Shown: positions 5,169 to 47,556 of the stretch, one piece after another
How the letters are laid out: each line of letters starts with the position of its first letter
Position numbering within the stretch: position 1 is the stretch's first letter
DNA from: a virus
Lineage: Duplodnaviria > Heunggongvirae > Uroviricota > Caudoviricetes
Strand: one strand, 5' to 3'
Length of the DNA: 48,141 nucleotides
IMG/VR virus record: IMGVR_UViG_2675903658_000004
Made by a program: the position numbers and the translations under genes
Notes under the pieces: model-generated
What the model saw: only the letters and a program-made list of their open reading frames with translations
What the model was told of the DNA's origin: nothing
Database searches by the model: none

Positions 5169-5321
5169 TCAGTGGTTGTCATACCTGGTCTCTCTCATCT
5201 GCTTCTGCTTTCGCCACCATCATTTCCAGCTTTTGTGAAAGGGATGTGGCTAACGTATGAAATTCTTTGAACCGCCCCGGGAATCCTGGAGACTAAACTT
5301 CCTGAGAAAGAGGTAAACAGG

Positions 5322-5648
5322 ATGACTAAAAATACTCGTTTTTCCCCCGAAGTCCGTCAACGGGCAGTCCGTATGGTTCTGGAAAGTCAGAGCGAATATG
5401 ACTCACAATGGGCGACAATTTGTTCCATTGCTCCAAAGATTGGCTGTACGCCGGAGACTCTGCGTGTCTGGGTTCGCCAGCATGAGCGGGATACCGGGGG
5501 CGGTGATGGAGGGCTCACCACCGCTGAACGTCAGCGTCTGAAAGAGCTGGAACGTGAAAATCGTGAACTGCGCTGCAGTAACGATATCCTTCGCCAGGCT
5601 TCCGCTTATTTTGCGAAGGCGGAGTTCGACCGCCTCTGGAAAAAATGA
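5322..5648 (+). CDS. IS629 OrfA (HTH transposase subunit)
   Basis: 108-aa ORF with HTH and leucine-zipper-like region; ends in an A-run where orfB overlaps in the -1 frame. Confidence 0.9.
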
Positions 5649-6535
5649 TGCCACTGCTGGATAAGCTGCGTGAGCAGTACGGGGTCGGACCGCTATGCAG
5701 CGAACTGCATATTGCCCCGTCAACGTATTACCACTGTCAGCAACAGCGACATCATCCGGATAAACGCAGTGCCCGTGCGCAGCGCGATGACTGGCTGAAG
5801 AAAGAGATACAGCGCGTATACGATGAAAATCACAAGGTATACGGTGTGCGTAAAGTCTGGCGTCAGTTGTTACGGGAAGGTATCAGAGTGGCCAGATGCA
5901 CTGTGGCACGTCTCATGGCGGTTATGGGACTTGCCGGTGTTCTCCGGGGTAAAAAGGTCCGTACGACCATCAGCCGGAAAGCCGTTGCCGCAGGCGACCG
6001 CGTAAACCGTCAGTTCGTGGCAGAACGACCTGACCAGCTGTGGGTGGCTGATTTTACTTACGTCAGCACATGGCGGGGCTTCGTCTATGTGGCGTTCATC
6101 ATTGATGTGTTTGCCGGATACATCGTGGGGTGGCGGGTCTCATCGTCCATGGAAACGACATTCGTGCTGGATGCACTGGAGCAGGCGTTATGGGCCCGTC
6201 GACCGTCCGGCACGGTCCATCACAGTGATAAAGGTTCTCAGTATGTATCGCTGGCCTACACACAGCGGCTTAAGGAAGCCGGATTACTGGCATCAACAGG
6301 AAGTACAGGCGACTCGTATGACAACGCGATGGCGGAGAGCATCAATGGTCTTTACAAAGCGGAGGTAATACACCGTAAGAGCTGGAAAAACCGTGCAGAA
6401 GTGGAACTGGCCACACTCACGTGGGTGGACTGGTATAACAATCGACGATTGCTGGAAAGGCTGGGCCATACTCCTCCGGCAGAAGCAGAAAAAGCTTATT
6501 ATGCTTCCATCGGAAACGATGATCTGGCAGCCTGA
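5645..6535 (+). CDS. IS629 OrfB (DDE integrase-core transposase)
   Basis: 296-aa ORF with an rve/DDE core; -1 frame relative to orfA. Confidence 0.9.
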
Positions 6536-6655
6536 GTTCACAGATAAAACACTCTCCAGGAAACCCGGGGCGGTTCACTTCGTCTGTTTCTACTGGTATT
6601 GGCACAAACCTGACTCCAATTTGAGCAAGGCTATGTGCCATCTCAATACTCGTTC

Positions 6656-6838
6656 TTAACTCAACAGGAGATGCTTTGTGCATACCGCCTCCCGTTTATT
6701 ATTTATCTTCTCAGCCAGCCGCTGTGCTTTCAGTGGATTTCTGATAACAGAAAGGCCGGGAAATACCCAGCCTCGCTTTGTAACGGAGTAGACGAAAGTG
6801 ATCGCGCCTACCCGGATATTATCGTGAGGATGCGTCAT
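6656..6838 (-). CDS. hypothetical small protein downstream of exo
   Basis: ORF 6656..6844 trimmed to the ATG whose first base overlaps the exo stop. Confidence 0.35.
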   Translation of the reverse strand: MTHPHDNIRVGAITFVYSVTKRGWVFPGLSVIRNPLKAQRLAEKINNKREAVCTKHLLLS

Positions 6839-7515
6839 CACCATTGCTCCCCAAATACAAAACTAATTTCAGCCAGTGCCTCGTCCATTTTTTCGATGAA
6901 CTCCGGCACCATCTCGTCAAAACTCGCCATGTACTTTTCATCCCGCTCAACCACGACATAATGCAGTCCTTCACGCTTCATACGCGGGTCATAGTTGGCA
7001 AAGTACCAGGCATCTTTTCGCGTCACCCACATGCTGTACTGCACCTGGGCCATGTAAGCCGATTTTATGGCCTCGAAACCACCGAGCCGGAACTTCATGA
7101 AATCCCGGGAGGTAAACGGGCATTTCAGCTCAAGGCCGTTGCCGTCACTGCATAAACCATCGGGAGAGCAGGCGGTGCGCATACTTTCGTCGCGATAGAT
7201 GATCGGGGATTCAGTAACATTCACGCCGGAAGTAAACTCAAACAGGGCTCTGGCGTCGTTCTCGTACTGTTTTCCCCAAGCCAGCGCCTTAGCGTTAACT
7301 TCCGGAGCCACACCGGTGCAAACCTCAGCAAGCAGGGTGTGGAAGTAGGACATTTTCATGTCAGGCCATTTCTTTCCGGAGCGGGGTTTTGCTATCACGT
7401 TGTGAACTTCTGAAGCGGTGATGACGCCGAGCCGTAATTTGTGCCATGCATCATCCCCCTGTTCGACAGCTCTCACGTCGATCCCGGTACGCTGCAGGAT
7501 AATGTCCGGTGTCAT
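6838..7515 (-). CDS. exo: lambda exonuclease (Red-alpha)
   Basis: 225-aa protein near-identical to recalled lambda Exo; immediately downstream of bet. Confidence 0.95.
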
Positions 7516-8297
7516 GCTGCCACCTTCTGCTCAGTGGCTTTCTGTTTCAGGAATCCAAGAGCTTTCACTGCTTCGGCCTGTGTCAGTTCTGACGATGCGC
7601 GAATGTCGCGGCGAAATATCTGGGAACAGAGCGGCAATAAGTCGTCATCCCATGTTTTATCCAGGGCGATCAGCAGAGTGTTAATCTCCTGCATGGTTTC
7701 ATCGTTAACCGGAGTGATGTCGCGTTCCGGCTGACGTTCTGCAGTGTATGCGGTATTTTCGACAATGCGCTCGGCTTCATCCTTGTCATAGATACCAGCA
7801 AATCCGAAGGCGAGACGGGCACACTGAATCATGGCTTTATGCCGTAACATCCGTTTGGGATGCGACTGCCACGGCCCCGTGATTTCTCTGCCTTCGCGGG
7901 TTTTGAATGGTTCGCGGCGGCATTCATCCATCCACTCGGTAACGCAGATCGGATGATTGCGGTCTTTGCGGTAAATCCGGCATGTACATGATTCATTGTC
8001 CTGCTCAAAGTCCATACCATCAAACTGCTGGTTTTCATTGATGATGCGGGACCAGCCATCAACGCCCACCACCGGAACAATGCCGTTCTGCTTATCAGGG
8101 AAGGCGTAAATTTCTTTCGTCCACGGATTAAGGCCGTACTGGTTGGCGACGATCAACAATGCGATGAACTGCGCATCGCTGGCATCACCTTTAAATGCCG
8201 TCTGGCGAAGAGTGGTGATCAGTTCCTGTGGGTCGACAGAATCCATGCCGACACGTTCAGCCAGCTTCCCTGCCAGCGTTGCGAGTGCTGTACTCAT
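7512..8297 (-). CDS. bet: Red-beta single-strand annealing recombinase
   Basis: 261-aa protein matching recalled lambda Bet. Confidence 0.95.
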
Positions 8298-8302
8298 CCG
8301 TT

Positions 8303-8599
8303 TTATACCTCTGAATCAATATCAGCCTGATGGTGAGCAATGGTTTCAACTATGTACCGGATGTGTTCTGCCATGCGCTCCTGAAACTCAACATCGTCAT
8401 CAAACGCACGGGTAATGGCTTTTTTGCTGGCCCCGTGGCGTTGTAAATGATCGATGCATAGCGATTCAAACAGGTGCTGGGGCAGGCCTTTTTCCATGTC
8501 GTCTGCCAGTTCTGCCTCTTTCTCTTCACGGGCGATCTGCTGGTAGTGACGCGCCCAGCTCTGAGCCTCAAGACGATCCTGAATGTAATAAGCGTTCAT
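8303..8599 (-). CDS. gam: Gam (RecBCD inhibitor), short form
   Basis: 98-aa ORF beginning [21 protein letters not shown], matching the lambda GamS sequence. Confidence 0.9.
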
Positions 8600-8674
8600 G
8601 GCTGAACTCCTGAAAATGGCTGTGAAAATATCGCCCGCGAAATGCCAGGCTGATTAGGAAAACAGGAAAGGGGG

Positions 8675-8818
8675 TTAGTGAATGCTTTTGCTTGATCTCA
8701 GTTTCAGTATTAATATCCATTTTTTATAAGCGTCGACGGCCTCACGAAACATCTTTTCATCGCCAATAAAAGTGGCGATAGTGAATTTAGTCTGGATAGC
8801 CATAATTGTTTGATCCAT
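8675..8818 (-). CDS. kil: Kil (host cell-division inhibitor)
   Basis: Internal ATG of ORF 8675..8944 gives a 47-aa [22 protein letters not shown]... product matching lambda Kil. Confidence 0.85.
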
Positions 8819-8951
8819 TTTTTGGGACTCCTGGCTGATTAAGTATGTCGATAAGGCGTTTCCATCCGTCACGTAATTTACGGGTGATTCGTTCAAGTAA
8901 AGATTCGGAAGGGCAGCCAGCAACAGGCCACCCTGCAATGGCATATTGCAT
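8787..8951 (-). CDS. cIII: CIII (FtsH protease inhibitor)
   Basis: Not in the ORF track (under 60 aa); hand translation from the ATG at 8951 gives [54 protein letters not shown], matching lambda CIII; overlaps the kil start. Confidence 0.85.
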   Translation of the reverse strand: MQYAIAGWPVAGCPSESLLERITRKLRDGWKRLIDILNQPGVPKNGSNNYGYPD

Positions 8952-9023
8952 GGTGTGCTCCTTATTTATACATAACGAAAAACGCCTCGAGTGAAGCGTA
9001 ATTGGTATGCGGTAACGCCGCGC

Positions 9024-9392
9024 TCAGGCGGCCTTGATAGTCATATCATCTGAATCAAATATTCCTGATGTATCGATATCGGTAATTCTTATTCCTTCAC
9101 TACCATCCATTGGAGGCCATCCTTCCTGACCATTTCCATCATTCCAGTCGAACTCACACACAACACCATATGCATTTAAGTCGCTTGAAATTGCTATAAG
9201 CAGAGCATGTTGCGCCAGCATGATTAATACAGCATTTAATACAGAGCCGTGTTTATTGAGTCGGTATTCAGAGTCTGACCAGAAATTATTAATCTGGTGA
9301 AGTTTTTCCTCTGTCATTACGTCATGGTCAATTTCAATTTCTATTGATGCTTTCCAGTCGTAATCAATGATGTATTTTTTGATGTTTGACAT
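9024..9392 (-). CDS. ea10: Ea10-like early protein
   Basis: 122-aa ORF matching recalled lambda Ea10; correct position between cIII and ral. Confidence 0.8.
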   Translation of the reverse strand: MSNIKKYIIDYDWKASIEIEIDHDVMTEEKLHQINNFWSDSEYRLNKHGSVLNAVLIMLAQHALLIAISSDLNAYGVVCEFDWNDGNGQEGWPPMDGSEGIRITDIDTSGIFDSDDMTIKAA

Positions 9393-9574
9393 CTATTCAT
9401 ATCCTCATAGATAAAAAATCGCCCTCACACTGGAGGGCAAAGAAGATTTCCAATAATCAGAACAAGTCGGCTCCTGTTTAGTTACGAGCGACATTGCTCC
9501 GTGTATTCACTCGTTGGAATGAATACACAGTGCAGTGTTTATTCTGTTATTTATGCCAAAAATAAAGGCCACTA

Positions 9575-9775
9575 TCAGGCAGCTTTGTTGTTCTGTTTAC
9601 CAAGTTCTCTGGCAATCATTGCCGTCGTTCGTATTGCCCATTTATCGACATATTTCCCATCTTCCATTACAGGAAACATTTCTTCAGGCTTAACCATGCA
9701 TTCCGATTGCAGCTTGCATCCATTGCATCGTTTGAATTGTCCACACCATTGATTTGTATCAATAGTCGTAGTCAT
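9575..9775 (-). CDS. ral: Ral (restriction alleviation protein)
   Basis: 66-aa MTTTIDTNQWCGQFKRCNGCKLQSECMV... matching lambda Ral. Confidence 0.9.
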   Translation of the reverse strand: MTTTIDTNQWCGQFKRCNGCKLQSECMVKPEEMFPVMEDGKYVDKWAIRTTAMIARELGKQNNKAA

Positions 9776-9845
9776 ACGGATAGTCCTGGTATTGTTCCAT
9801 CACATCTTGAGGATGCTCTTCGAACTCTTCAAATTCTTCTTCCAT
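9759..9845 (-). CDS. 28-codon acidic ORF upstream of ral (MEEEFEEFEEHPQDVMEQYQDYPYDYDY)
   Basis: Hand-translated; ATG at 9845, TGA at 9759-9761, overlaps the ral start; identity with a lambda small ORF is only from uncertain memory. Confidence 0.3.
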   Translation of the reverse strand: MEEEFEEFEEHPQDVMEQYQDYPYDYDY

Positions 9846-9988
9846 ATATCACCTTAAATAGTGGATTGCGGTAGTAAAGATTGTGCCTGTCTTTTAACCA
9901 CATCAGGCTCGGTGGTTCTCGTGTACCCCTACAACGAGAAATCGGATAAACTCTATTCACCCCTACAGAGAGCAAAAGAGAAACGCCG

Positions 9989-10570
9989 ATGAACAACTCA
10001 TGGTGGCAGGAACTAATGCATTTTTTCCTGCAAGGAATGACACTTAAACAGTTGATTCATATGCTAATCATCCTGATCATATTGATTATTGTTATGCCGG
10101 TAAGCGTAAAAGAATGGATAAACCTGCATAGTCCAGAAATCCTTCCTCATTACTGGATGTATTACATCCTGTTGTTTTGCGTTAGCTATGTGCTTAACGG
10201 CGTTGTTAATTCCGCTTATCACGCTGTGACTGAAAGAATTGAGGTATTCGCTGCTCAGAAGCGCAAATCTAAAGAAGAAAAATATGTGCAAGATTTGTTT
10301 GATTCGTTAACTCTTGGAGAAAGAGCGTATTTGGCATTCGCTGTAGCCGCTAATAACCAGCTACAAACGGAAAAGGGCGCTCATGAATCAATTTCATTGC
10401 TCAAAAAAGGACTCCTCGTTCGAAGGCCTCCTGCTGTTGGATATCCTGATACCGACCGTTTCGTTATCCCTGAAAGCTATAGACATGAGTGCTACATTAG
10501 GTTTGCCGGGAAGGCAGACAGCCTTATGGATGAACTTATCGCTCAGGATAAGCATGGCAAAAACAAGTAA
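9989..10570 (+). CDS. sieB: SieB superinfection exclusion protein
   Basis: 193-aa protein with an N-terminal hydrophobic segment, matching recalled lambda SieB; opposite strand to the pL operon as in lambda. Confidence 0.9.
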   Translation: MNNSWWQELMHFFLQGMTLKQLIHMLIILIILIIVMPVSVKEWINLHSPEILPHYWMYYILLFCVSYVLNGVVNSAYHAVTERIEVFAAQKRKSKEEKYVQDLFDSLTLGERAYLAFAVAANNQLQTEKGAHESISLLKKGLLVRRPPAVGYPDTDRFVIPESYRHECYIRFAGKADSLMDELIAQDKHGKNK

Positions 10571-10586
10571 TTAGCAAATGAATTTA

Positions 10587-10859
10587 TCATCTCGCCGTCA
10601 GTTGTTTTGATTTCCGGTAGCCTGCCGCGTAAAGAGCTACGTTCGGAAGACAAGTTGAACCTTCATATTTTCTGGTCAACGTTGTCAGAGTTATCACTTC
10701 TGCTCTCATTGCTGGTTTGAGCTTGCATTGCAAGACCACTCGTGAAGGGGTTGGCCTGTGTAGCTTGTCGGAGCTGATCGCCTCCTGACTTTGCAGATTT
10801 GCGCGACGAGCTCTACGGCGAGAAGCTGCGGTGCCTTTAAATTCTGTTTTTCTGGACAT
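10587..10859 (-). CDS. N: N-like transcription antitermination protein (non-lambda specificity type)
   Basis: Arg-rich N-terminus (TAASRRRARRANLQ) and a C-terminus ...CLPNVALYAAGYRKSKQLTAR recalled from H-19B/933W-type N; ATG at 10859 preceded by GGAGG; ORF track start at 10931 is probably too far upstream. Confidence 0.7.
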   Translation of the reverse strand: MSRKTEFKGTAASRRRARRANLQSQEAISSDKLHRPTPSRVVLQCKLKPAMRAEVITLTTLTRKYEGSTCLPNVALYAAGYRKSKQLTAR

Positions 10860-10971
10860 GGATTCCTCCCGAATAAACTTTGGCGATGCAATCTCGAAGC
10901 TCCTCCTGAGACGGTTGCTTCGGCATTGCATCCCACAGCTTATGTGGTTGGGTGATCTGGCTTTTCAGCCA

Positions 10972-11002
10972 CGTAGTCGAGAGTCGACGTTGTTTAAAGA
11001 GC
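10972..11002 (-). promoter_or_regulatory. putative nutL (boxA-like GCTCTTTAAACAA plus boxB-like hairpin)
   Basis: Minus-strand GCTCTTTAAACAA followed by a GTCGA/TCGAC hairpin and TACG; the same architecture recurs at nutR (13639..13666). Confidence 0.45.
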
Positions 11003-11019
11003 CTGCCAGTCTGTTCCAT

Positions 11020-11110
11020 TTGGCTTCCAGCGTCCTGCTGACGGTTAAATAGTACGATATGTACTTTACAAGATCAATACAATTTGTTGTAAGTTGGCGT
11101 GGTTTTTTAT
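11020..11110 (-). promoter_or_regulatory. probable oL/pL region
   Basis: Intergenic, AT-rich, upstream of N; contains the palindrome AGTACGATATGTACT (11051..11065) and TTACAA...TTGTAA inverted repeats; operators not resolved. Confidence 0.35.
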
Positions 11111-11270
11111 AACGCTTTGTATTTAATAGTGTTGTTTTTTAGCGTGGATGTATTGCCTCGGCGATGTAAGGAGAGATCAGAATTGCGTGGTTTAGTGGGT
11201 TGCATCTATTTATTTTTCAATAAATATAATTGGTTATGTGTTTTTAGGTGGGCGAACGTGAGGCAAAGAA

Positions 11271-11292
11271 AACCCGGCGCTGAGGCCGGGTT
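11271..11292 (-). terminator. rho-independent terminator ending the cI/rex-slot operon
   Basis: Perfect 8-bp stem AACCCGGC/GCCGGGTT with a 6-nt loop, followed on the minus strand by UUUUCUUUG (plus 11262..11270); lies 4 nt past the 250-aa ORF stop. Confidence 0.55.
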
Positions 11293-11295
11293 GTA

Positions 11296-12048
11296 TTATG
11301 CTGCAAGTCTCTTAACCCAAGTCTCTCTTTTGGAGAATGGTAGAACTTGGCTTGATTCATGGAAGAGTAAGGAGAGTTGTTGCATTTGATCACCAATTGC
11401 TTCGCTGTCTATAACAACAAATCTGTTGTTATACTCCTCACTTGAAGCTTTAAGATCAATTAGTTTCCCAAGCAATGAGTAAGCACTATTCCAGCTTCCT
11501 CCGTGTTTCACGCTTGATGTAAAAACGTATTTAGGTATGTCGGTTTTTATTGTTACAGGGACGGTAATTTGATGTCCACTCAAGCCATATACGTTTTCAC
11601 GAAGAGAAAGTGCGTCTCTAAGCTCTGTGTGATATAGATAATCAATAACCATACTTTCAAACTTTTCAGCTTGAACTGGCTGATACCAGTCTAACGACAA
11701 AGTTGATGCGAGTATACCAGCTCTAATTATGTTCGATGTAATCGCACCGACATCCTTTTCTGTTGCCCAAGCAATGATTTCTCCTCGAGCATTGAGTTCT
11801 GCGCCTTCTTTAAGCAGTAATTGTCGTATCTCATCAAGTCGTTTTTTGGTAAGCGAGATCCCTCTTGCCTCCATATTCATTAAGGCATCGCATCTGTCAC
11901 TAACTAAATACCTACCATTGACTTCACGGATAAAGGCACCGACATGCTCTCCATCATCACAGTAAGTGAATGGACTGATAATTCTCAAGGTCTTGCCTAT
12001 TGGATGGCATTCGAAACCTAGTTGTGAGATCACTGTTGAGCACATCAT
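11296..12048 (-). CDS. hypothetical protein, rex-slot gene 2 (250 aa), candidate defence/exclusion component
   Basis: ATG at 12048 overlaps the upstream stop in an ATGA arrangement; AT-rich; no recognisable motif; occupies the rexB position. Confidence 0.6.
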   Translation of the reverse strand: MMCSTVISQLGFECHPIGKTLRIISPFTYCDDGEHVGAFIREVNGRYLVSDRCDALMNMEARGISLTKKRLDEIRQLLLKEGAELNARGEIIAWATEKDVGAITSNIIRAGILASTLSLDWYQPVQAEKFESMVIDYLYHTELRDALSLRENVYGLSGHQITVPVTIKTDIPKYVFTSSVKHGGSWNSAYSLLGKLIDLKASSEEYNNRFVVIDSEAIGDQMQQLSLLFHESSQVLPFSKRETWVKRLAA

Positions 12049-12602
12049 ATTCCAAACCCCATTTGCCCCGACTCATCTTCAAGCGGTAAAGGTATTCTCC
12101 CAGAGTAAGTTATGTTCAGATGTTTACAGAAGTAATTCCAATACCCTACCAGGTCATCTGGGTTTATGTCATCTTCGATTGGAAACGCTATTCTATCACT
12201 ATAGTATCCAGCTTCTTCATAGTATACATGGTAGTGAGCACCGTAAATGATATCTTGGTACTTCGGATGATCGACCTTGTAACTATTCGTGTGTTTGTCA
12301 AAGTGATAGGTATCTACCGCGAAAACCCTCTTGTTATGATAGAAAGCAATAATATTTATTTTAGGGTAAGAAATCGGGTCATCAGGTTCTGAATCCTGAT
12401 CTGGTTTCCATTTCAGTTCAAACTTTAGCCCTTGTATAGGTATACAATCCTCATCCAAGGGGATGATATGGGCTTGTAGCCACATATCAGAGCGACTTGG
12501 TTTCTGTTTCCATTTAACGCCAGAAAAGTTAACTATTTTTTTACAATAAAGTACTTTATCAACTTCTACTTGGCTTGGCTGATAATCATCTATTTTTGCC
12601 AA
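12045..12602 (-). CDS. hypothetical protein, rex-slot gene 1 (185 aa), candidate defence/exclusion component
   Basis: Begins 39 nt downstream of the cI stop, same strand; annotated start is TTG (non-ATG), so the true start is uncertain; Tyr/His/Asp-rich, no TM segment seen. Confidence 0.55.
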   Translation of the reverse strand: MAKIDDYQPSQVEVDKVLYCKKIVNFSGVKWKQKPSRSDMWLQAHIIPLDEDCIPIQGLKFELKWKPDQDSEPDDPISYPKINIIAFYHNKRVFAVDTYHFDKHTNSYKVDHPKYQDIIYGAHYHVYYEEAGYYSDRIAFPIEDDINPDDLVGYWNYFCKHLNITYSGRIPLPLEDESGQMGFGI

Positions 12603-12641
12603 TGTTTACCGCCCTGTAAATTGTAGATAAAAGTGGTTTCA

Positions 12642-13301
12642 TCACCCAAACGTCTCTTCAGGCCATTGGCTGGCGATAACTTTCCCCACAACGGAACAAC
12701 TCTCATTGCATGGGATCATTGGGTATTGTGGGTTTAGTGGCTGTAGAAACACCTGACCGCTATCCCTGATCAGTTTCTTGAAGGTAAATTCATCACCACC
12801 AAGTCTGGCTATGCAGAAATCGCCGGGCTCAACAGCTTGCTCAGGGTCAACCAGAATTAACATCCCGTCAGGAAAGCTGGGTTTGGAACCTGTTGGTGCG
12901 GTCATTGAGTTACCTTCAACCTCAAGCCAGAATGCAGAGTCACTGGCTTTTTTGGTTGTGCTTACCAATCTCTCCGCATCGCCTTTGGTAAAGGTTCTGA
13001 GTTCTGGAGAGAACATCCCAGCCTGAACATGAGAAAAAACAGGGTACTCATATTGTTTTTTAACTGGGGCCGATGAGTATTCGCCAACAGGTGAAAATGT
13101 CCCGTCGTGGTTGAATGATATGTTATCAATACCAAGGTATTTAAACACCACACCAATATCACTAAGAGATGGATGACGAGATCCGCGCAACCAGTGTCCA
13201 ATCCCACCCTGCGTCATACCTAGCTCTTCGGCTAACTTCTCTTGAGTTATGCCGAGCTCTTTCATTCTGGATCTAGCCAGTTCATACCATTTCATTTTCA
13301 T
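12642..13301 (-). CDS. cI: CI-type prophage repressor (HTH plus S24/LexA-like autocleavage domain)
   Basis: N-terminal HTH ([22 protein letters not shown]), C-terminal GNSM...K motifs of S24 peptidases; divergent from cro across an operator region; start taken at an internal ATG. Confidence 0.85.
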
Positions 13302-13412
13302 GTCCTTATTATTACGCTCTGTACTGGAACCATCCATGCACAATGTGTATTTTTACTTGTATTCGCAAAGTACATATTGTATTTTTTTATTCGTGTTTAC
13401 TATGGAGGGCAT
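13302..13412. promoter_or_regulatory. oR/pRM/pR divergent promoter-operator region
   Basis: About 110-bp AT-rich intergenic region between divergent cI and cro; contains TACTTGTATTCGCAAAGTA-type partial inverted repeats; GGAGGG precedes the cro ATG. Confidence 0.5.
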
Positions 13413-13628
13413 ATGAGCAACCTACGAAAATATCGAGAGTCACTGAATATCTCTCAAACAACACTTGCTAAGGCAGTTGGATGCACACAGGGAGCTATCG
13501 GACATTGGGAATCTGGTCGTCGCTTCCCAGACCTTAAAACATGCCGTGCTCTTGTTGCGTGCCTAAACAAGTTAGGCGCAAAAGTCAGTCTTGATGACGT
13601 GTTCCCGCCGGAACACAAAGCCGCTTAA
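13413..13628 (+). CDS. cro: Cro-like HTH repressor
   Basis: 71-aa product from the internal ATG at 13413 (ORF track start 13242 is too far upstream); HTH QTTLAKAVGCTQGAIGHWESG. Confidence 0.8.
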   Translation: MSNLRKYRESLNISQTTLAKAVGCTQGAIGHWESGRRFPDLKTCRALVACLNKLGAKVSLDDVFPPEHKAA

Positions 13629-13638
13629 TAAGCGGATC

Positions 13639-13666
13639 CGCTCTTTGTAACAACGGACATTCGTCC
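13639..13666 (+). promoter_or_regulatory. putative nutR (boxA-like CGCTCTTTGTAACAA plus boxB-like hairpin GGACATTCGTCC)
   Basis: Located just downstream of cro; shares boxA + hairpin + TACG architecture with the nutL candidate. Confidence 0.45.
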
Positions 13667-13769
13667 TACGTCGCTGAAAAGCGAGTTCCAAGATATCTGA
13701 CCAACTAAGGCCATATGCGTTTCCACGCATACCTTTCAACTAACTATTCACTATTGGAAATCTTAAGAA

Positions 13770-14066
13770 ATGGAAAGAACAAGTTACAGCAAACTATCAC
13801 AGCGTGACGTTGATCGCGCAGAAACAGATTTACTTATCAATCTGTCAGCTATTACCCAGCGCGGTCTGGCAAAGATGATTGGCTGTCATGAATCGAAGAT
13901 AAGCAGAACGGACTGGAGATTTATTGCTTCGGTCTTGTGTGCTTTCGGAATGGCATCAGACATCAGTCCGATTAGCAGGGCTTTTAAGTATGCGCTTGAT
14001 GGACTCACCAATAAAAAACGCCCGGCGGCAACCGAGCGTTCTGAACAAATCCAGATGGAATTCTGA
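13770..14066 (+). CDS. cII: CII transcriptional activator
   Basis: C-terminus ...TNKKRPAATERSEQIQMEF matches lambda CII. Confidence 0.9.
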   Translation: MERTSYSKLSQRDVDRAETDLLINLSAITQRGLAKMIGCHESKISRTDWRFIASVLCAFGMASDISPISRAFKYALDGLTNKKRPAATERSEQIQMEF

Positions 14067-14088
14067 GGTCATTACTGGATCAATCCAC
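14012..14088 (-). ncRNA. oop: oop antisense RNA (putative)
   Basis: Minus-strand sequence matches recalled lambda OOP RNA, including the terminator GCCGCCGGGCG followed by UUUUUUAUU; antisense to the cII 3' end. Confidence 0.5.
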
Positions 14089-14580: not shown

Positions 14581-14727
14581 GAATTCTGGCGAATCCTCTG
14601 ACCAGCCAGAAAACGACCTTTCTGTGGTGAAACCGGATGCTGCAATTCAGAGCGGCAGCAAGTGGGGGACAGCAGAAGACCTGACTGAACCGCCCCGGGT
14701 TTCCTGGAGAGTGTTTTATCTGTGAAC

Positions 14728-34834: not shown

Positions 34835-34849
34835 TCCGGAGAGTCAGCG

Positions 34850-38568: not shown

Positions 38569-39266
38569 TGCAGGATATCCGGCAGGAAACATTGAATGAA
38601 TGCACCCGTGCGGAGCAGTCGGCCAGCGTGGTGCTCTGGGAAATCGATCTGACAGAGGTCGGTGGAGAACGTTATTTTTTCTGTAATGAGCAGAACGAAA
38701 AAGGTGAGCCGGTCACCTGGCAGGGGCGACAGTATCAGCCGTATCCCATTCAGGGGAGTAGTTTTGAACTGAATGGCAAAGGCACCAGTACGCGCCCCAC
38801 GCTGACGGTTTCTAACCTGTACGGTATGGTCACCGGGATGGTGGAAGATCTGCAGAGTCTGGTCGGCGGAACGGTGGTCAGGCGTAAGGTTTACGCCCGT
38901 TTTCTGGATGCGGTGAACTTCGTCAACGGAAACAGCGACGCCGATCCGGAGCAGGAGGTGATCAGCCGCTGGCGCATCGAGCAGTGCAGCGAACTGAGTG
39001 CGGTCAGTGCCTCCTTTGTACTGTCCACACCGACGGAAACGGATGGTGCCGTTTTTCCGGGGCGCATCATGCTGGCTAATACCTGCACCTGGACCTATCG
39101 CGGTGATGAGTGCGGTTATCACGGTCCGGCGGTCGCGGATGAATATGATCAGCCGACTTCCGATATCACGAAGGATAAATGCAGCAAATGCCTGAGCGGC
39201 TGTAAGTTTCGCAATAACGTCGGCAACTTTGGCGGCTTCCTTTCCATTAACAAACTTTCGCAGTAA
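38568..39266 (+). CDS. L: minor tail protein L
   Basis: 232-aa protein matching recalled lambda gpL. Confidence 0.9.
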   Translation: MQDIRQETLNECTRAEQSASVVLWEIDLTEVGGERYFFCNEQNEKGEPVTWQGRQYQPYPIQGSSFELNGKGTSTRPTLTVSNLYGMVTGMVEDLQSLVGGTVVRRKVYARFLDAVNFVNGNSDADPEQEVISRWRIEQCSELSAVSASFVLSTPTETDGAVFPGRIMLANTCTWTYRGDECGYHGPAVADEYDQPTSDITKDKCSKCLSGCKFRNNVGNFGGFLSINKLSQ

Positions 39267-39271
39267 ATCCC

Positions 39272-40015
39272 ATGACAGAGACAGAATCAGCGATTCTGGC
39301 GCATGCCCGGCGATGTGCGCCAGCGGAGTCGTGCGGCTTCGTGGTGAGAGCGCCGGAGGGGGAAAGATATTTTCCCTGCGTGAATATCTCCGGTGAGCCG
39401 GAGGCGTATTTCCGGATGGCTCCGGAGGACTGGCTGCAGGCAGAGATGCAGGGTGAGATTGTGGCGCTGGTCCACAGTCATCCCGGTGGTCTGCCCTGGC
39501 TGAGTGAGGCCGACCGGCGGCTGCAGGTGCAGAGTGATTTGCCGTGGTGGCTGGTCTGCCGGGGGGCGATTCATAAGTTCCGCTGTGTGCCGCATCTCAC
39601 CGGGCGGCGCTTTGAGCACGGGGTGACGGACTGTTACACGCTGTTCCGGGACGCTTACCATCTGGCGGGGATTGAGATGCCGGACTTTCATCGTGAGGAT
39701 GACTGGTGGCGTAACGGCCAGAATCTCTATCTTGATAATCTGGAGGCCACAGGGCTGTATCAGGTGCCGTTGTCAGCGGCGCAGCCGGGCGATGTGCTGC
39801 TGTGCTGCTTTGGTTCATCGGTGCCGAATCATGCCGCTATTTACTGTGGTGACGGCGAGCTGCTGCACCATATTCCTGAACAACTGAGTAAACGAGAGAG
39901 GTATACCGACAAATGGCAGCGACGCACACACTCCCTCTGGCGTCACCGGGCATGGCGCGCATCTGCCTTTACGGGGATTTACAACGATTTGGCCGCCGCA
40001 TCGACCTTCGTGTGA
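39272..40015 (+). CDS. K: tail tip assembly protein K (JAB/MPN plus NlpC/P60-like domains)
   Basis: 247-aa protein matching recalled lambda gpK. Confidence 0.9.
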   Translation: MTETESAILAHARRCAPAESCGFVVRAPEGERYFPCVNISGEPEAYFRMAPEDWLQAEMQGEIVALVHSHPGGLPWLSEADRRLQVQSDLPWWLVCRGAIHKFRCVPHLTGRRFEHGVTDCYTLFRDAYHLAGIEMPDFHREDDWWRNGQNLYLDNLEATGLYQVPLSAAQPGDVLLCCFGSSVPNHAAIYCGDGELLHHIPEQLSKRERYTDKWQRRTHSLWRHRAWRASAFTGIYNDLAAASTFV

Positions 40016-40584
40016 AAACGGGGGCTGAAGCCATCCGCGCACTGGCCACACAGCTCCCGGTGTTTCGTCAGAAACTGAGCGACGGCTGGTATCAGGTACG
40101 GATTGCCGGGCGGGACGTCAGCACGTCCGGGTTAACGGCGCAGTTACATGAGACTCTGCCTGATGGCGCTGTGATTCATATTGTTCCCAGAGTCGCCGGG
40201 GCCAAGTCAGGTGGCGTATTCCAGATTGTCCTGGGGGCTGCCGCCATTGCCGGATCATTCTTTACCGCCGGAGCCACCCTTGCAGCATGGGGGGCAGCCA
40301 TTGGGGCCGGTGGTATGACCGGCATCCTGTTTTCTCTCGGTGCCAGTATGGTGCTCGGTGGTGTGGCGCAGATGCTGGCACCGAAAGCCAGAACTCCCCG
40401 TACACAGACAACGGATAACGGCAAACAGAACACCTATTTCTCCTCACTGGATAACATGGTTGCCCAGGGCAATGTTCTGCCGGTTCTGTACGGTGAAATG
40501 CGCGTGGGGTCACGCGTGGTTTCTCAGGAGATCAGCACGGCAGACGAAGGGGATGGTGGTCAGGTTGTGGTGATTGGTCGCTGA
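39913..40584 (+). CDS. I: tail assembly protein I
   Basis: 223-aa protein matching recalled lambda gpI. Confidence 0.9.
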   Translation: MAATHTLPLASPGMARICLYGDLQRFGRRIDLRVKTGAEAIRALATQLPVFRQKLSDGWYQVRIAGRDVSTSGLTAQLHETLPDGAVIHIVPRVAGAKSGGVFQIVLGAAAIAGSFFTAGATLAAWGAAIGAGGMTGILFSLGASMVLGGVAQMLAPKARTPRTQTTDNGKQNTYFSSLDNMVAQGNVLPVLYGEMRVGSRVVSQEISTADEGDGGQVVVIGR

Positions 40585-40644
40585 TGCAAAATGTTTTATG
40601 TGAAACCGCCTCCGGGCGGTTTTATCGTTTATGGAGCATGAGGA

Positions 40645-43600
40645 ATGGGTAAAGGCAGCAGTAAGGGGCATACCCCGCGCGAAGCGAAGGACAACCTGAA
40701 ATCATCCCAGATGCTGAGCGTGATAGACGCCATCAGCGAAGGGCCGGTTGAAGGTCCGGTGGATGGATTAAAAAGCGTGCTGCTGAACAGTACGCCGGTG
40801 CTGGACAGTGAGGGGAATACCAATATATTCGGCGTCACGGTGGTGTTCCGGGCCGGTGAGCAGGAGCAGACACCGCCGGAGGGATTTGAATCCTCCGGCT
40901 CCGAGACGGTGCTCGGTACAGAAGTGAAATATGACACGCCGATCACCCGGACCATCACGTCGGCAAACATTGACCGTCTGCGTTTTACTTTCGGCGTGCA
41001 GGCACTGGTGGAAACCACCTCAAAGGGGGACAGGAATCCATCGGAAGTCCGCCTGCTGGTTCAGATTCAACGTAACGGTGGCTGGGTGACGGAAAAAGAC
41101 ATCACCATTAAGGGCAAAACCACGTCGCAGTATCTGGCCTCGGTGGTGGTGGATAACCTGCCGCCGCGCCCGTTTAATATCCGGATGCGCAGGATGACGC
41201 CGGACAGCACCACAGACCAGTTGCAGAACAAAACGCTCTGGTCGTCATACACCGAAATCATCGATGTGAAACAGTGCTACCCGAACACGGCACTGGTCGG
41301 CGTACAGGTGGACTCGGAGCAGTTCGGCAGCCAGCAGGTGAGCCGTAATTATCATCTTCGCGGGCGCATTCTGCAGGTGCCGTCGAACTATAACCCGCAG
41401 ACGCGGCAATACAGCGGTATCTGGGACGGAACGTTTAAGCCAGCATACAGCAACAACATGGCCTGGTGTCTGTGGGATATGCTGACCCATCCGCGCTACG
41501 GCATGGGGAAACGTCTTGGTGCGGCAGATGTGGATAAATGGGCGCTGTATGTCATCGGCCAGAATTGCGACCAGTCAGTGCCGGACGGCTTTGGCGGCAC
41601 GGAGCCGCGCATCACCTGTAATGCGTACCTGACCACACAGCGCAAGGCGTGGGATGTGCTCAGTGATTTTTGCTCGGCGATGCGCTGTATGCCGGTATGG
41701 AACGGGCAGACGCTGACATTCGTGCAGGACCGACCGTCGGATAAGGTGTGGACCTATAACCGCAGTAATGTGGTGATGCCGGATGATGGCGCGCCGTTCC
41801 GCTACAGCTTCAGCGCCCTGAAAGACCGCCATAATGCCGTTGAGGTGAACTGGATTGACCCGGATAACGGCTGGGAGACGGCGACAGAGCTTGTGGAGGA
41901 CACGCAGGCCATTGCCCGTTACGGTCGTAACGTCACGAAGATGGATGCCTTTGGCTGTACCAGCCGGGGGCAGGCACACCGCGCCGGGCTGTGGCTGATT
42001 AAAACGGAGCTGCTGGAAACGCAGACCGTGGACTTCAGCGTGGGTGCAGAAGGGCTTCGCCATGTACCGGGCGATGTCATTGAAATCTGTGATGATGACT
42101 ATGCGGGGATCAGCATCGGCGGGCGCGTGCTGGCGGTGAACAACCAGACGCGGACACTGACGCTCGACCGTGAAATCACGCTGCCATCCTCCGGCACCAC
42201 GCTGATAAGCCTGGCTGACGGACAGGGGAATCCGGTCAGCGTGGAGGTCCAGTCCGTCACCGACGGCGTGAAGGTAAAAGTGAGCCGTGTTCCTGACGGC
42301 GTTGCAGAATACAGCGTGTGGGGGCTGAAGTTGCCAACGTTGCGCCAGCGCCTGTTCCGCTGTGTGAGTATCCGTGAGAACGATGACGGCACGTATGCCA
42401 TCACTGCCGTGCAGCATGTACCGGAAAAAGAGGCCATCGTGGATAACGGGGCGCACTTTGACGGCGACCAGAGCGGCACGGTGAATGGTGTCACGCCGCC
42501 AGCGGTGCAGCACCTGACTGCCGAAGTCACCGCAGACAGCGGGGAATATCAGGTGCTGGCGCGCTGGGACACGCCGAAGGTGGTGAAGGGGGTGAGCTTT
42601 ATGCTTCGCCTGACCGTGGCAGCGGATGACGGCAGTGAGCGGCTGGTCAGCACGGCCCGGACGACGGAAACCACATACCGCTTCAGGCAACTGGCGCTGG
42701 GGAACTACAGGCTGACAGTCCGGGCGGTAAATGCGTGGGGGCAGCAGGGCGATCCGGCATCGGTATCGTTCCGGATTGCCGCACCGGCAGCGCCGTCGCA
42801 GATTGAGCTGACACCGGGGTATTTTCAGATAACCGCCACGCCGCATCTTGCGGTTTATGATCCGACGGTACAGTTTGAGTTCTGGTTCTCGGAAAAGCGG
42901 ATTGCGGATATCAGGCAGGTTGAAACCACAGCACGCTATCTTGGCACGGCGCTGTACTGGATAGCCGCCAGTATCAATATCAAACCGGGCCATGATTATT
43001 ATTTTTACATCCGCAGTGTGAACACCGTTGGCAAATCGGCATTTGTGGAGGCTGTTGGCCAGCCGAGTGATGATGCATCCGGCTATCTGAATTTTTTCAA
43101 AGGAGAGATAGGGAAAACCCATCTGGCTCAGGAGTTGTGGACGCAGATTGATAACGGTCAGCTTGCGCCTGACCTGGCTGAAATCAGGACGTCCATTACG
43201 GGTGTCAGCAATGAAATCACGCAGACCGTCAATAAGAAACTGGAAGACCAGAGTGCAGCGATCCAGCAGATACAGAAGGTTCAGGTTGATACAAATAATA
43301 ACCTGAACAGCATGTGGGCTGTGAAGCTGCAGCAGATGCAGGACGGACGCCTTTATATCGCGGGTATTGGTGCCGGTGTTGAGAATACTCCTGACGGTAT
43401 GCAGAGTCAGGTGCTGCTGGCGGCGGACAGGATTGCGATGATTAATCCTGCGAATGGCAACACAAAGCCGATGTTTGTTGGGCAGGGCGATCAGATATTC
43501 ATGAACGAAGTGTTCCTGAAATATCTGACGGCTCCCACCATTACCAGCGGTGGCAATCCCCCAACGTTTTCACTGACACCTGATGGTCGACTTTCTGCGA

Positions 43601-44127
43601 AAAATGCGGATATCAGCGGTAACGTGAACGCGAACTCCGGGACGCTCAACAACGTCACGATTAATCAGAACTGTCGGATTCTGGGAAAACTGTCAGCTAA
43701 CCAGATTGAAGGTGATATTGTCAAAACGGTGGGAAAAGCCTTTCCGAGAAATGGCAGTTATGCCAGCGGTACAATAACGGTCACTGTGTACGATGACCAG
43801 GCTTTTGACCGTCAGATAGTAGTCCCCCCCGTTCTGTTTCGTGGGGGTAAGCATGAAAACTTCAACAGCAACAACCAACAGTCATACTGGTATTCAACCT
43901 GTAAGCTGCAGGTACTGAAGAACGGACAGGAAATCTTTCAGCAACCCGCGACGGATGTCAGCAGGGTATTTTCATCAGTCATTGATATGCCTGCCGGACA
44001 CGGCCATGTCACCCTGACTTTCAATGTTTCTTCATATGGTGCTAATAACTGGACGCCAACGACCAGTATCAGCGACCTTCTTGTTGTTGTGATGAAGAAA
44101 TCTACAGCCGGTATCAGTATCAGTTGA
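40645..44127 (+). CDS. J: central tail fiber / host specificity protein J
   Basis: 1160 aa, lambda gpJ-like over most of its length. Confidence 0.95.
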
Positions 44128-44146
44128 ATTTTATAACCCAGATACG

Positions 44147-44170
44147 GGCGCCAGAAATGGCGCCTTTTTT
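44147..44170 (+). terminator. rho-independent terminator after J
   Basis: GGCGCC / GGCGCC perfect 6-bp stem with loop AGAAAT, followed by TTTTTT. Confidence 0.55.
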
Positions 44171-44179
44171 ATTTGTGGA

Positions 44180-46189
44180 GTGAATATGGCAGTACAGATT
44201 TCAGGCGTGCTGAAAGACGGTGCAGGAAAACCGATACAGAACTGCACCATTCAGCTCAAAGCAAAACGTAACAGCACCACGGTTGTGGTGAACACGGTGG
44301 CCTCAGAAAATCCGGATGAAGCCGGACGTTACAGCATGGATGTCGAGTATGGCCAGTACAGCGTTATCCTGCTGGTTGAAGGTTTTCCGCCTTCACATGC
44401 CGGGGCCATCACCGTGTATGAGGATTCTAAGCCGGGGACATTGAATGATTTTCTGGGCGCTGCAACAGAAGATGATGTTCGTCCGGAGGCACTGTATCGT
44501 TTTGAAAAGATGGTGGAAGAGGTGGCACGCAACGCTGAAGCCGCCTCTCAGAGCGCAGCGGCAGCAAAGAAATCAGAAACAGCAGCGGCATCGTCCAGGA
44601 ATGCGGCGAAAACATCAGAGACGAATGCAGGTAACAGCGCGAAAGCGGCAGCTTCTTCAAAAACAGCCGCACAAAACGCAGCAACAGCGGCAGAACGTTC
44701 AGAGACAAATGCCCGTGCGTCAGAAGAAGCCTCCGCAGACAGTGAAGAGGCTTCCCGCCGTAATGCAGAGTCAGCCGCTGAAAATGCCGGAGTCGCCACC
44801 ACAAAAGCGCGGGAGGCCGCAGCAGACGCAACAAAGGCCGGGCAGAAAAAGGATGAGGCTCTGTCGGCAGCGACACGGGCTGAAAAGGCGGCAGACCGCG
44901 CAGAAGTCGCAGCGGAAGTGACTGCAGAGCCCTATGCGAATATAGTGCCGCCGCTGCCTGATGTGTGGATACCGTTTAACGATTCACTGGATATGATTGC
45001 GGGTTTTTCTCCGGGCTATAAAAAAATAGCTATTGGTGACGATGTGGTTCAGGTCGCCAGTGATAAACAGGTTAATTTCAGTCGCGCATCAACGGCAACA
45101 TATATCAACAAATCTGGCGAACTGAAAACGGCGGAAATTAATGAGCCGCGATTTGAGTGTGATGGCCTGCTTATTGAGGGACAAAGAACGAACTACATGC
45201 TCAATTCGGAAAGTCCAGCCAGCTGGGGGAAGTCATCAAACATGGATGTGCCCGAAACCGGGACAGATAGTTTTGGTTTTACTTATGGAAAGTTTGTCTG
45301 CAACGATTCTCTGGTTGGGCAAACTTCGGCTATTAATATGGCATCAATTGCTGCAACAAAGTCAGTTGATGTCTCAGGCGATAACAAGTACGTGACAACC
45401 TCATGCCGTTTTAAAACAGAACGACAGGTAAGGTTACGTATACGGTTTGATAAGTATGATGGTAGTGCAACAACTTTTCTTGGCGATGCGTACATTGATA
45501 CGCAAACGCTTGAAATTAATATGACAGGTGGGGCTGCCGGCAGAATTACGGCACGAGTCAGGAAGGATAAGACCACAGGCTGGATTTTTGCAGAGGCAAC
45601 GATTCAGGCAATTGATGGTGAGTTAAAAATAGGCTCTCAGATACAGTATTCTCCTGAGCGGGGTGGGGCAACAGTATCTGGTGACTATATTTATCTTGCC
45701 ACCCCACAAGTAGAGAATGGGCCGTGTGTATCATCATTTATTATTTCAGGAGGCAGCGCAACGACAAGAGCCAGTGATTTGGTTAGTATCCCCACCAGAA
45801 ATAATCTTTATAAGTTACCATTTACTTTTTTACTTGAGATTCATAAAAACTGGGATATTGCACCAAACGCCGCACCCCGCGTGTGGGATATAGCAGCAGC
45901 CAATACCGGGCAATCAGCAATTGCAGCAATCAACAGAGGTAGTGGTAAGTTATATATGAGTCTGTCAAACCCTTCAGGCTTGTATGTTAATAGCGCAGCG
46001 ACAGATGTATTTGCAGAGAAAACCACATTTGGATGTATTGCAAAAGCTGATGGTCACTTTCATGTGGTGACAAATGGTAAAGCGGTTAATGAAGTTTATT
46101 GTGAATATAATGGTGTGACCGCTGATAAAAATATCCGATTTGGAGGGCAGACGAATACTGGAGAACGACATCTGTTTGGCCATATTTGA
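44180..46189 (+). CDS. stf: side tail fiber protein (Stf-like N-terminus, distinct C-terminal domain); last 20 codons displaced by IS629 copy 3
   Basis: N-terminus MAVQISGVLKDGAGKPIQNCTIQLKAKRNSTTVVVNTV... matches lambda Stf; Ala/Ser-rich repeats; the ORF's stop TGA is the first three bases of the IS629 terminus. Confidence 0.85.
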   Translation: MNMAVQISGVLKDGAGKPIQNCTIQLKAKRNSTTVVVNTVASENPDEAGRYSMDVEYGQYSVILLVEGFPPSHAGAITVYEDSKPGTLNDFLGAATEDDVRPEALYRFEKMVEEVARNAEAASQSAAAAKKSETAAASSRNAAKTSETNAGNSAKAAASSKTAAQNAATAAERSETNARASEEASADSEEASRRNAESAAENAGVATTKAREAAADATKAGQKKDEALSAATRAEKAADRAEVAAEVTAEPYANIVPPLPDVWIPFNDSLDMIAGFSPGYKKIAIGDDVVQVASDKQVNFSRASTATYINKSGELKTAEINEPRFECDGLLIEGQRTNYMLNSESPASWGKSSNMDVPETGTDSFGFTYGKFVCNDSLVGQTSAINMASIAATKSVDVSGDNKYVTTSCRFKTERQVRLRIRFDKYDGSATTFLGDAYIDTQTLEINMTGGAAGRITARVRKDKTTGWIFAEATIQAIDGELKIGSQIQYSPERGGATVSGDYIYLATPQVENGPCVSSFIISGGSATTRASDLVSIPTRNNLYKLPFTFLLEIHKNWDIAPNAAPRVWDIAAANTGQSAIAAINRGSGKLYMSLSNPSGLYVNSAATDVFAEKTTFGCIAKADGHFHVVTNGKAVNEVYCEYNGVTADKNIRFGGQTNTGERHLFGHI

Positions 46190-46240
46190 ACCGCCCCGGG
46201 AATCCTGGAGACTAAACTTCCTGAGAAAGAGGTAAACAGG

Positions 46241-46567
46241 ATGACTAAAAATACTCGTTTTTCCCCCGAAGTCCGTCAACGGGCAGTCCGTATGGTTCTG
46301 GAAAGTCAGAGCGAATATGACTCACAATGGGCGACAATTTGTTCCATTGCTCCAAAGATTGGCTGTACGCCGGAGACTCTGCGTGTCTGGGTTCGCCAGC
46401 ATGAGCGGGATACCGGGGGCGGTGATGGAGGGCTCACCACCGCTGAACGTCAGCGTCTGAAAGAGCTGGAACGTGAAAATCGTGAACTGCGCTGCAGTAA
46501 CGATATCCTTCGCCAGGCTTCCGCTTATTTTGCGAAGGCGGAGTTCGACCGCCTCTGGAAAAAATGA
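46241..46567 (+). CDS. IS629 OrfA
   Basis: Protein identical to copy 1 OrfA. Confidence 0.9.
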
Positions 46568-47454
46568 TGCCACTGCTGGATAAGCTGCGTGAGCAGTACG
46601 GGGTCGGACCGCTATGCAGCGAACTGCATATTGCCCCGTCAACGTATTACCACTGTCAGCAACAGCGACATCATCCGGATAAACGCAGTGCCCGTGCGCA
46701 GCGCGATGACTGGCTGAAGAAAGAGATACAGCGCGTATACGATGAAAATCACAAGGTATACGGTGTGCGTAAAGTCTGGCGTCAGTTGTTACGGGAAGGT
46801 ATCAGAGTGGCCAGATGCACTGTGGCACGTCTCATGGCGGTTATGGGACTTGCCGGTGTTCTCCGGGGTAAAAAGGTCCGTACGACCATCAGCCGGAAAG
46901 CCGTTGCCGCAGGCGACCGCGTAAACCGTCAGTTCGTGGCAGAACGACCTGACCAGCTGTGGGTGGCTGATTTTACTTACGTCAGCACATGGCGGGGCTT
47001 CGTCTATGTGGCGTTCATCATTGATGTGTTTGCCGGATACATCGTGGGGTGGCGGGTCTCATCGTCCATGGAAACGACATTCGTGCTGGATGCACTGGAG
47101 CAGGCGTTATGGGCCCGTCGACCGTCCGGCACGGTCCATCACAGTGATAAAGGTTCTCAGTATGTATCGCTGGCCTACACACAGCGGCTTAAGGAAGCCG
47201 GATTACTGGCATCAACAGGAAGTACAGGCGACTCGTATGACAACGCGATGGCGGAGAGCATCAATGGTCTTTACAAAGCGGAGGTAATACACCGTAAGAG
47301 CTGGAAAAACCGTGCAGAAGTGGAACTGGCCACACTCACGTGGGTGGACTGGTATAACAATCGACGATTGCTGGAAAGGCTGGGCCATACTCCTCCGGCA
47401 GAAGCAGAAAAAGCTTATTATGCTTCCATCGGAAACGATGATCTGGCAGCCTGA
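46564..47454 (+). CDS. IS629 OrfB transposase
   Basis: Protein identical to copy 1 OrfB. Confidence 0.9.
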
Positions 47455-47556
47455 GTTCACAGATAAAACACTCTCCAGGAAACCCGGGGCGGTTCATATT
47501 CGCAATTTCCGCATATGGCATAAAGAATTAAATGACAGGCAATTAAAAGAGGTCGT

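Follow-up and report, generated by a model that had tools for sequence, protein, structure and literature searches.

IS629 belongs to the IS3 family, has the isoforms IS1203 and IS3411, and is known from Shigella sonnei and from EHEC O157:H7, O26 and O121. Members of the IS3 family produce OrfAB through a −1 frameshift, and they transpose by a copy-out step that yields a circle, whose insertion at the target then generates a short duplication. The subtypes of IS629 differ by 4-5%, its target duplications measure 3-4 bp, and 62% of its copies in O157 reside in prophages (Rump et al. 2011, PMC3271280). Rearrangements mediated by IS elements, among them the IS629-associated structural polymorphisms of O157 and large prophage-mediated rearrangements of the chromosome, share a common logic in which identical copies act as portable homology: direct copies yield a deletion, at which a single IS with hybrid flanks remains, and inverted copies yield an inversion with exchanged flanks. 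The locus described here follows the same logic; it differs in that both products and their precursor are found within one prophage, in near-identical natural genomes, and in scale, with segments of 8 kb and 41 kb as compared to the Mb-scale inversions of O157.

A further described system to which this locus compares is PAI-icd, a lambdoid prophage of B2 ExPEC at the phage-21/e14 site, with 'PAI-icd (Iss, Sit system)' being listed for many B2 strains (PMC7545054). The prophage studied here resembles PAI-icd in its integration at icd, with a partial icd' duplicate at the far end, in its content (iss, a phage porin gene and the adjacent sitABCD), and in its size of about 47-54 kb. Published variants of PAI-icd carry ISEc52 in ATCC 25922 and IS21-type elements in CFT073, or are shorter and Sit-only, as in UM146. 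Unlike these, the copy studied here has three IS629 insertions and a nonsense codon in its terminase gene.

Repeat detection over the window (the whole 48,141-nucleotide stretch that we analyzed) retrieved one direct repeat family and two inverted pairs, which resolve to three 1310-bp elements, denoted A, B and C (Table 1). Direct string comparison showed that A, the reverse complement of B, and C are 100% identical over all 1310 bp each, so that their OrfA and OrfB proteins are identical as well; a perfect repeat of this length cannot have arisen by chance. The initial annotation had described three identical 1310-bp IS629 copies, two direct and one inverted, and every base and coordinate agrees with this description, the nucleotide-level comparison revealing zero divergence. 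The direct copies A and C lie 40,919 bp apart, start to start. Beyond the 1310 bp, repeat detection found no sequence in the window that is shared among the copies, and each copy is bordered by a short duplication of its own (aaattCTT-IS-CTTcgtc for A, gacctGAC-IS-GACcgcc for B, and ggccaTATT-IS-TATTcgca for C).

Table 1. Features of the IS629-bearing prophage, in window coordinates
Feature	Position	Strand	Details
IS629 copy A	5268..6577	+	1310 bp; repeat detection and string comparison
Copy A, terminal inverted repeats	5268-5292 and 6553-6577		23/25 match
Copy A, orfA	5322-5648
Copy A, orfB	5645-6535		−1 frame
Copy A, A6 run	5640-5645
Copy A, ALIL frameshift pseudoknot	5603-5719
Copy A, target-site duplication	5265..5267 (left) and 6578-6580 (right)		CTT
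IS629 copy B	14686..15995	-	1310 bp; inverted relative to A and C
Copy B, orfA	15615-15941
Copy B, orfB	14728-15618
Copy B, ALIL pseudoknot	15544-15660
Copy B, target-site duplication	14683..14685 (left) and 15996-15998 (right)		GAC
IS629 copy C	46187..47496	+	1310 bp; orientation as A
Copy C, orfA	46241-46567
Copy C, orfB	46564-47454
Copy C, ALIL pseudoknot	46522-46638
Copy C, target-site duplication	46183..46186 (left) and 47497-47500 (right)		TATT
DUF1382-family early gene, split by copy A	5179..6683	-	fragments 5179-5268 and 6579-6683
Lambda-type replication initiator gene O, split by copy B	14099..16311	+
Large terminase gene	25660-27588	+
Nonsense codon in large terminase gene	26560..26562		TGG to TGA, W301*
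Tail-fibre gene ('head spike fiber domain'), truncated by copy C	44522..46189	+	574 to 555 aa
Segment missing from SFAD3	6578..47496		40,919 bp; product of A×C direct recombination
Segment inverted in GCA_964044925.1 and GCA_031020785.1	6578..14685		8108 bp; exo ... cI-cro-cII-O'; A×B product
Further IS629 insertion, HM670 gpJ	43537-43539		3-bp duplication, window-equivalent position
Further IS629 insertion, FDAARGOS_1301	47845-47848
Further IS629 insertion, NMBU-W13E19	47638-47640

Each element encodes an OrfA of 108 aa and an OrfB of 296 aa in two overlapping reading frames, whose offset of 323 nt puts orfB into −1 relative to orfA. In identical IS copies PGAP records a programmed frameshift, and an A6 run directly 5' of the orfA stop codon probably marks the slip site. 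All three copies also give a full-length match to the ALIL pseudoknot (RF01497; 120.2 bits, gathering score 50). In Pfam searches OrfA matched HTH_Tnp_1 (3.9e-12), and OrfB matched HTH_21 (3.1e-18) and the rve integrase core (8.3e-28), a DDE domain of the rve type with an RNase H-like fold; OrfB further scored 314.6 bits against the NCBIfam model NF033516, 'IS3 family transposase' (cutoff 160). The element ends in TG...CA inverted repeats (TGAACCGCCCCGGGAATCCTGGAGA and TGAACCGCCCCGGGTTTCCTGGAGA) that match at 23 of 25 positions, and the CTT, GAC and TATT duplications have the 3-4-bp length typical of IS629.

An element was assigned to IS629 if it measured 1310 bp and was 95% or more identical in nucleotide sequence to a reference copy, for which we took the mobile_element of LC567824.1 (Stx2a phage Stx2_499), annotated by its depositors as 'IS3 family IS629' with the TSD CCAG. 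Identity to this element was 99.5%. Since every IS3- and IS629-defining feature that could be tested was found, the elements are, as judged from their sequence, an IS3-family IS629 isoform, and the name IS629 is justified. They share with the IS629 of S. sonnei and EHEC the 1310-bp length, the TG...CA repeats, the −1 frameshift with its ALIL pseudoknot, the rve-type DDE transposase, the 3-4-bp duplications, and a preference for, or survival in, prophages. The isoform is nevertheless not that of O157: the copy in O157:H7 TW14359, named 'IS1203 family' by PGAP, is only 96.2% identical, with 50 substitutions and no gaps, and the O157-type isoform was therefore rejected. As compared to the commonest close variant, our element has a private base, T307, which changes Arg85 of OrfA to Cys (R85C). 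HM670 and Z22-2 each also have a copy of the T307 variant between tia and papG-II, and this copy is a plausible source of those in the prophage.

The host, an E. coli, likewise differs from the EHEC in which IS629 is known. The best matches to the window were the ExPEC genomes HM670, KE51, FCI5 and OZ546918, which are kin of CFT073, ABU 83972 and ATCC 25922; given these CFT073-like matches and the 96.2% identity of the O157 IS copy, an origin in O157:H7 or another EHEC was rejected. The neighboring genomes suggest that the host belongs to the ST73 group. The annotation of the near-identical region in HM670 describes a lambdoid prophage that runs from int-xis through early genes, exo-bet-gam-kil-cIII, the immunity region and O-P-ren-nin-Q to the phage porin gene, the lysis genes, iss (bor-like), and the head and tail genes, followed by sitDCBA. 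In strain SFAD3 int adjoins icd, and part of icd recurs on the far side of sitABCD, so that the prophage occupies the icd attachment site; it corresponds to PAI-icd. A search of the window for tRNA genes found none.

It had been proposed that almost the whole prophage would be lost if the direct copies A and C recombined, and SFAD3 carries precisely this product. The strain was retrieved by a search with the C junction, in which one 100% piece, beside a DUF1382 fragment, covered the IS together with C's right flank. We constructed the predicted A×C product by joining window positions 1-6577 to 47497-48141, and found that this one assembly matches it without gaps at 7222 of 7222 bases. The annotation of SFAD3 reads icd, int-xis ... 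DUF1382', IS, two small ORFs and sitDCBA, with a single IS that has CTT on its left and TATT on its right (gaaattCTT-IS-TATTcgcaattt). SFAD3 retains an int-xis arm of 5.3 kb, a single IS, 0.65 kb from the right end, and the sitABCD cargo. Lost with the deleted segment are exo-bet-gam, the immunity region, O/P, Q, the porin and lysis genes, iss, and every head and tail gene.

The flanks are a CTT/TATT hybrid and the right boundary is exactly that of C, which points to an ancestor arranged like the window in which the direct copies A and C underwent homologous recombination. A deletion made by the transposase, through intramolecular transposition or an adjacent deletion starting at A, or by the IS-excision enhancer, would also have precedent, as IS629 is linked to genomic deletions and the enhancer promotes its excision in EHEC (PMC9943667); an adjacent deletion, moreover, likewise leaves one IS with unmatched flanks. 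However, the right junction of SFAD3 falls on the exact nucleotide where copy C ends, with TATT kept, so that an independent adjacent deletion would have had to strike 1 position in about 41,000, and the IS in SFAD3 is complete rather than excised. We therefore regard a transposase- or enhancer-driven deletion as very unlikely.

The initial annotation further held that pairing with the inverted copy would invert early or late segments. The early inversion, A×B, exists in nature: GCA_964044925.1 matches the predicted inversion product at 17,163 of 17,164 bases (1 mismatch in this one assembly) and shows exchanged flanks, GTC-IS-CTT and GAC-IS-AAG, and GCA_031020785.1 contains the same junction, in which the left flank of B is followed by the IS and the reverse complement of the left flank of A. 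As in SFAD3, where one IS is left, the flanks of the two ISs in GCA_964044925.1 are reassorted from those of the parental copies. No A×B inversion junction was present in the 5426 complete RefSeq genomes; the inversions were found only in a larger assembly collection, by means of the protein in which the N-terminal part of O runs into copy B (O'-IS). Among 24 contigs retrieved in this way and read, 3 were grouped as inverted and 21 had the orientation of the window. The late inversion, B×C, was not observed, its junction being absent from the 5426 complete RefSeq genomes and not found in the assemblies either. As a side observation, the gene orientations imply that after the A×B inversion pL would face the O'-P-Q side and pR would face xis-int, although the significance of this re-orientation in a defective prophage is doubtful.

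Related genomes also preserve the sites as they were before insertion. CFSAN067215 has the same prophage without A or B and carries, in exact 80-nt matches, a single CTT and a single GAC at the very sites, and FDAARGOS_1301 and HM670 show, again in exact 80-nt matches, a single TATT at an uninterrupted site C. Since the empty sites carry each motif once, CTT, GAC and TATT are real target-site duplications rather than chance repeats, as had been claimed for each copy.

The distribution of the copies among genomes differs between A and B on the one hand and C on the other. A search with window positions 1-25000, requiring at least 80% of this region to be present, retrieved 79 complete genomes, of which four (HM670, KE51, FCI5 and OZ546918) have both A and B and about 75 have neither; the genomes listed after those four cover 90% of this region, as would be expected of IS-free copies of the prophage. 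Junction searches agreed, finding A and B in 4 of the 5426 complete RefSeq genomes, and A was never encountered without B, nor B without A. Junction hits in O157, O103 and others were considered as possible same-site hot spots and rejected, as they represent insertions at other sites (exo, P and upstream of O). Copy C is absent from all 5426 complete RefSeq genomes and occurs only in the window and in 2-3 draft assemblies: the exact 555-aa truncated fibre protein is encoded on short contigs of GCA_001521355.1 and GCA_001520555.1, which enter the IS by 67 nt. HM670, in addition to A and B, has its third copy in gpJ, with a duplication of its own. Within the large assembly collection, 169 index blocks list the 208-aa O'-IS fusion protein, so that the A/B lineage is not rare. 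The comparison of IS629 positions across related genomes thus places A and B in four complete genomes and C in drafts only and, together with the separate duplications and the empty sites in relatives, upholds the claim that the insertions were independent.

The claim of recent transposition activity was sustained as well, with the exact IS sequence being private to 6 of the 5426 complete RefSeq genomes. Perfect identity might in principle also be retained by old insertions, through gene conversion or through assembly polishing; homogenization of repeats is a known assembly artefact, which makes perfect identity slightly less informative, and one older scaffold assembly has 5 mismatches in copy A. 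We nevertheless give an old origin very little credence, because the same prophage lacks A and B in about 75 complete genomes at ~100% identity and has both in only 4, because C is so narrowly confined, because the flanks are essentially undiverged (KE51 matches window positions 1-25000 as one single piece at 100.0% identity, and HM670 has only 15 differences over 43.5 kb), and because identical copies are also found in independent assemblies.

That the three copies stem from duplication or rearrangement of one IS-bearing segment, or from an IS-bounded composite transposon, as two direct copies bracketing a large segment might suggest, is effectively refuted and deserves almost no weight: each copy has its own 3-4-bp duplication at a site that is uninterrupted and single-copy in relatives, no repeat extends beyond the 1310 bp, the phylogenetic distributions differ, the outer flanks (CTT left of A, TATT right of C) do not match, and the intervening DNA is resident prophage that occupies the same locus in IS-free relatives.

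The insertions interrupt three prophage genes. Copy A splits a DUF1382-family early gene that is intact (192 bp) in CFSAN067215. Copy B breaks gene O after codon 196 of 299, and the N-terminal fragment runs into the IS and stops at 14725, giving a protein of 208 aa as compared to 299 aa when intact. In the tail-fibre gene truncated by copy C, the stop codon is the TGA that opens the IS, the last 19 codons are lost, and the 3' end is displaced to 47497-47559. The large terminase gene carries W301* in both the window and HM670 but not in ABU 83972, where it is intact; this codon signals, independently of the insertions, that the prophage is decaying. With gene O, the tail-fibre gene and the DUF1382 gene broken and the terminase carrying a nonsense codon, the prophage is very probably unable to replicate or package.

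We therefore consider it very likely that three IS629 copies entered PAI-icd by separate insertions and later recombined with one another. Under this model, IS629 would make OrfAB by a programmed −1 frameshift between orfA and orfB and, as in other members of its family, would transpose by copy-out-paste-in with a 3-4-bp target duplication at each new site. Activity through a circular copy-out intermediate is suggested by family membership, and at least four lineage-restricted insertions of the identical variant lend it indirect support. In one CFT073-like B2 ExPEC sublineage, the T307 variant would have inserted three separate times into the icd-integrated prophage, hitting the DUF1382 gene, gene O and the tail-fibre gene and, along with the terminase nonsense codon, leaving the prophage crippled. 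The identical copies would then have provided 1.3-kb substrates for homologous recombination, either RecA-mediated or possibly driven by the prophage's own Exo/Bet (Red) system. Pairing of the direct repeats A and C would remove 40.9 kb and retain int-xis, one IS and the sitABCD cargo, and pairing of the inverted repeats A and B would flip an 8.1-kb block of early and immunity genes.

This is textbook IS-mediated prophage decay; prophages are already well known to harbor IS629, and IS elements to mediate deletions and inversions, and this case leaves general knowledge of either unchanged. What is added is that natural genomes bear out the predicted A×C deletion and A×B inversion, and that the host and the isoform are corrected. 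Near-identical genomes form a natural decay series produced by a single IS, from the intact prophage through IS insertions to the 8-kb inversion and the 41-kb deletion, the latter keeping sitABCD and int-xis at the cost of iss, the phage porin gene and the entire set of lysis and virion genes. Such a series is of use as a worked example and, within this ExPEC lineage, as a marker for strain typing. It also carries a warning, as short-read assemblies break at these IS sites and thereby conceal such variants.

Across four lineages, this prophage has received at least six independent, near-identical IS629 insertions: A, B, C, the one in gpJ of HM670, and one each in FDAARGOS_1301 and NMBU-W13E19, with four of the six lying within the last 4.6 kb. 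Either targeting or simply neutral survival within dead phage DNA could account for these insertions. We think it unlikely that IS629 truly targets PAI-icd, by local hopping or regional preference, beyond what neutral survival would give, or that the R85C change in OrfA alters activity. In HM670, 3 of the 7 genomic IS matches fall in 0.94% of the genome, a concentration whose nominal P of 2.8e-5 applies to a region chosen post hoc.

The prophage integrated at icd gathers insertion sequences in several lineages. In other strains, IS629 has inserted independently at three more sites within the tail end of this prophage, with a duplication of 3-4 bp at each; this could mark the region as a hot spot or reflect insertions that accumulated neutrally. 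A further icd-site prophage carrying IS629 is seen in AF017626.1, a record labelled "phage 21 int" that dates from around 1997 and comes from E. coli strain EC38; a 99.9% identical element (731-2040) lies within its integrase region. Other element types have also entered this prophage: ISEc52 near the ead/DUF1382 genes in ATCC 25922 and its relatives, and the IS21-family elements ISEc10 and IS100 in CFT073, MS 200-1 and RIVM_C040753.

The IS629 of the present lineage carries a private T at IS position 307 (window 5574, 15689 and 46493), which results in an R85C change within the coiled-coil part of OrfA. The same variant was found between tia and papG-II in HM670, a near-identical relative, and in Z22-2, making this copy a candidate source copy. 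In an older scaffold assembly (GCA_000457755.1, L019 1170-2479), copy B is identical to the IS of the window and copy A is 5 bases off; this difference probably stems from noise in the short-read consensus of the repeat, although it could be a real variant.

The IS-bearing lineage has a second inactivating lesion, independent of the IS: residue 301 of the large terminase is changed from TGG to a TGA nonsense codon, common to the window and HM670 and absent in the related genome ABU 83972. Directly upstream of the fibre gene lies a gene fragment for a "prophage tail fiber N-terminal domain", which is a pseudogene in HM670, ABU 83972 and FDAARGOS_1301 as well; its decay is earlier than the IS insertions.

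There are 15 differences between the window and HM670: 12 form clusters in the portal and tape-measure genes, and the remaining three fall in the early and replication region. All 12 clustered positions also separate the window from ABU 83972, and the major capsid gene has a denser patch that appears only in the comparison with ABU 83972. The patches in these three genes resemble short tracts recombined in from another lambdoid prophage.

Also present in this prophage are a phage-borne OmpC-like porin gene and the bor-like iss. Since sitABCD sits between the last phage gene and the partial icd duplicate, Sit is cargo inside the att-bounded element. In SFAD3, which carries the deletion between copies A and C, iss and the porin gene were lost and Sit was kept. 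The lambda cIII thermoregulator RNA element (RF01804) is matched over its full length, at 88.5 bits, by a stretch upstream of the prophage's cIII gene.

Positions of features in the window and in loci of related strains
Feature	Strain or locus	Locus position	Window position	Strand
IS629 in gpJ	HM670, L001	43540-44849	43537-43539 (equivalent)	
IS629 near last small ORFs	FDAARGOS_1301, L003	3849-5158	47845-47848 (equivalent)	
IS629 near last small ORFs	NMBU-W13E19, L004	4121-5430	47638-47640 (equivalent)	
T307 IS629, tia/papG-II	HM670 and Z22-2; L012; L009	5001-6310; 7001-8310		
sitABCD, partial icd duplicate	L002	11049-14498, 16412-16579		
cIII RNA element			8906-8964	-
OmpC-like porin gene			20215-21297	-
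iss			23088-23381	-
Large terminase gene			25660-27588	
Terminase nonsense codon			26560-26562	
Difference patch, portal			28362-29145	
Difference patch, major capsid			32075-32278	
Difference patch, tape-measure			36476-36910	
Tail fiber N-terminal fragment			~44186-44549
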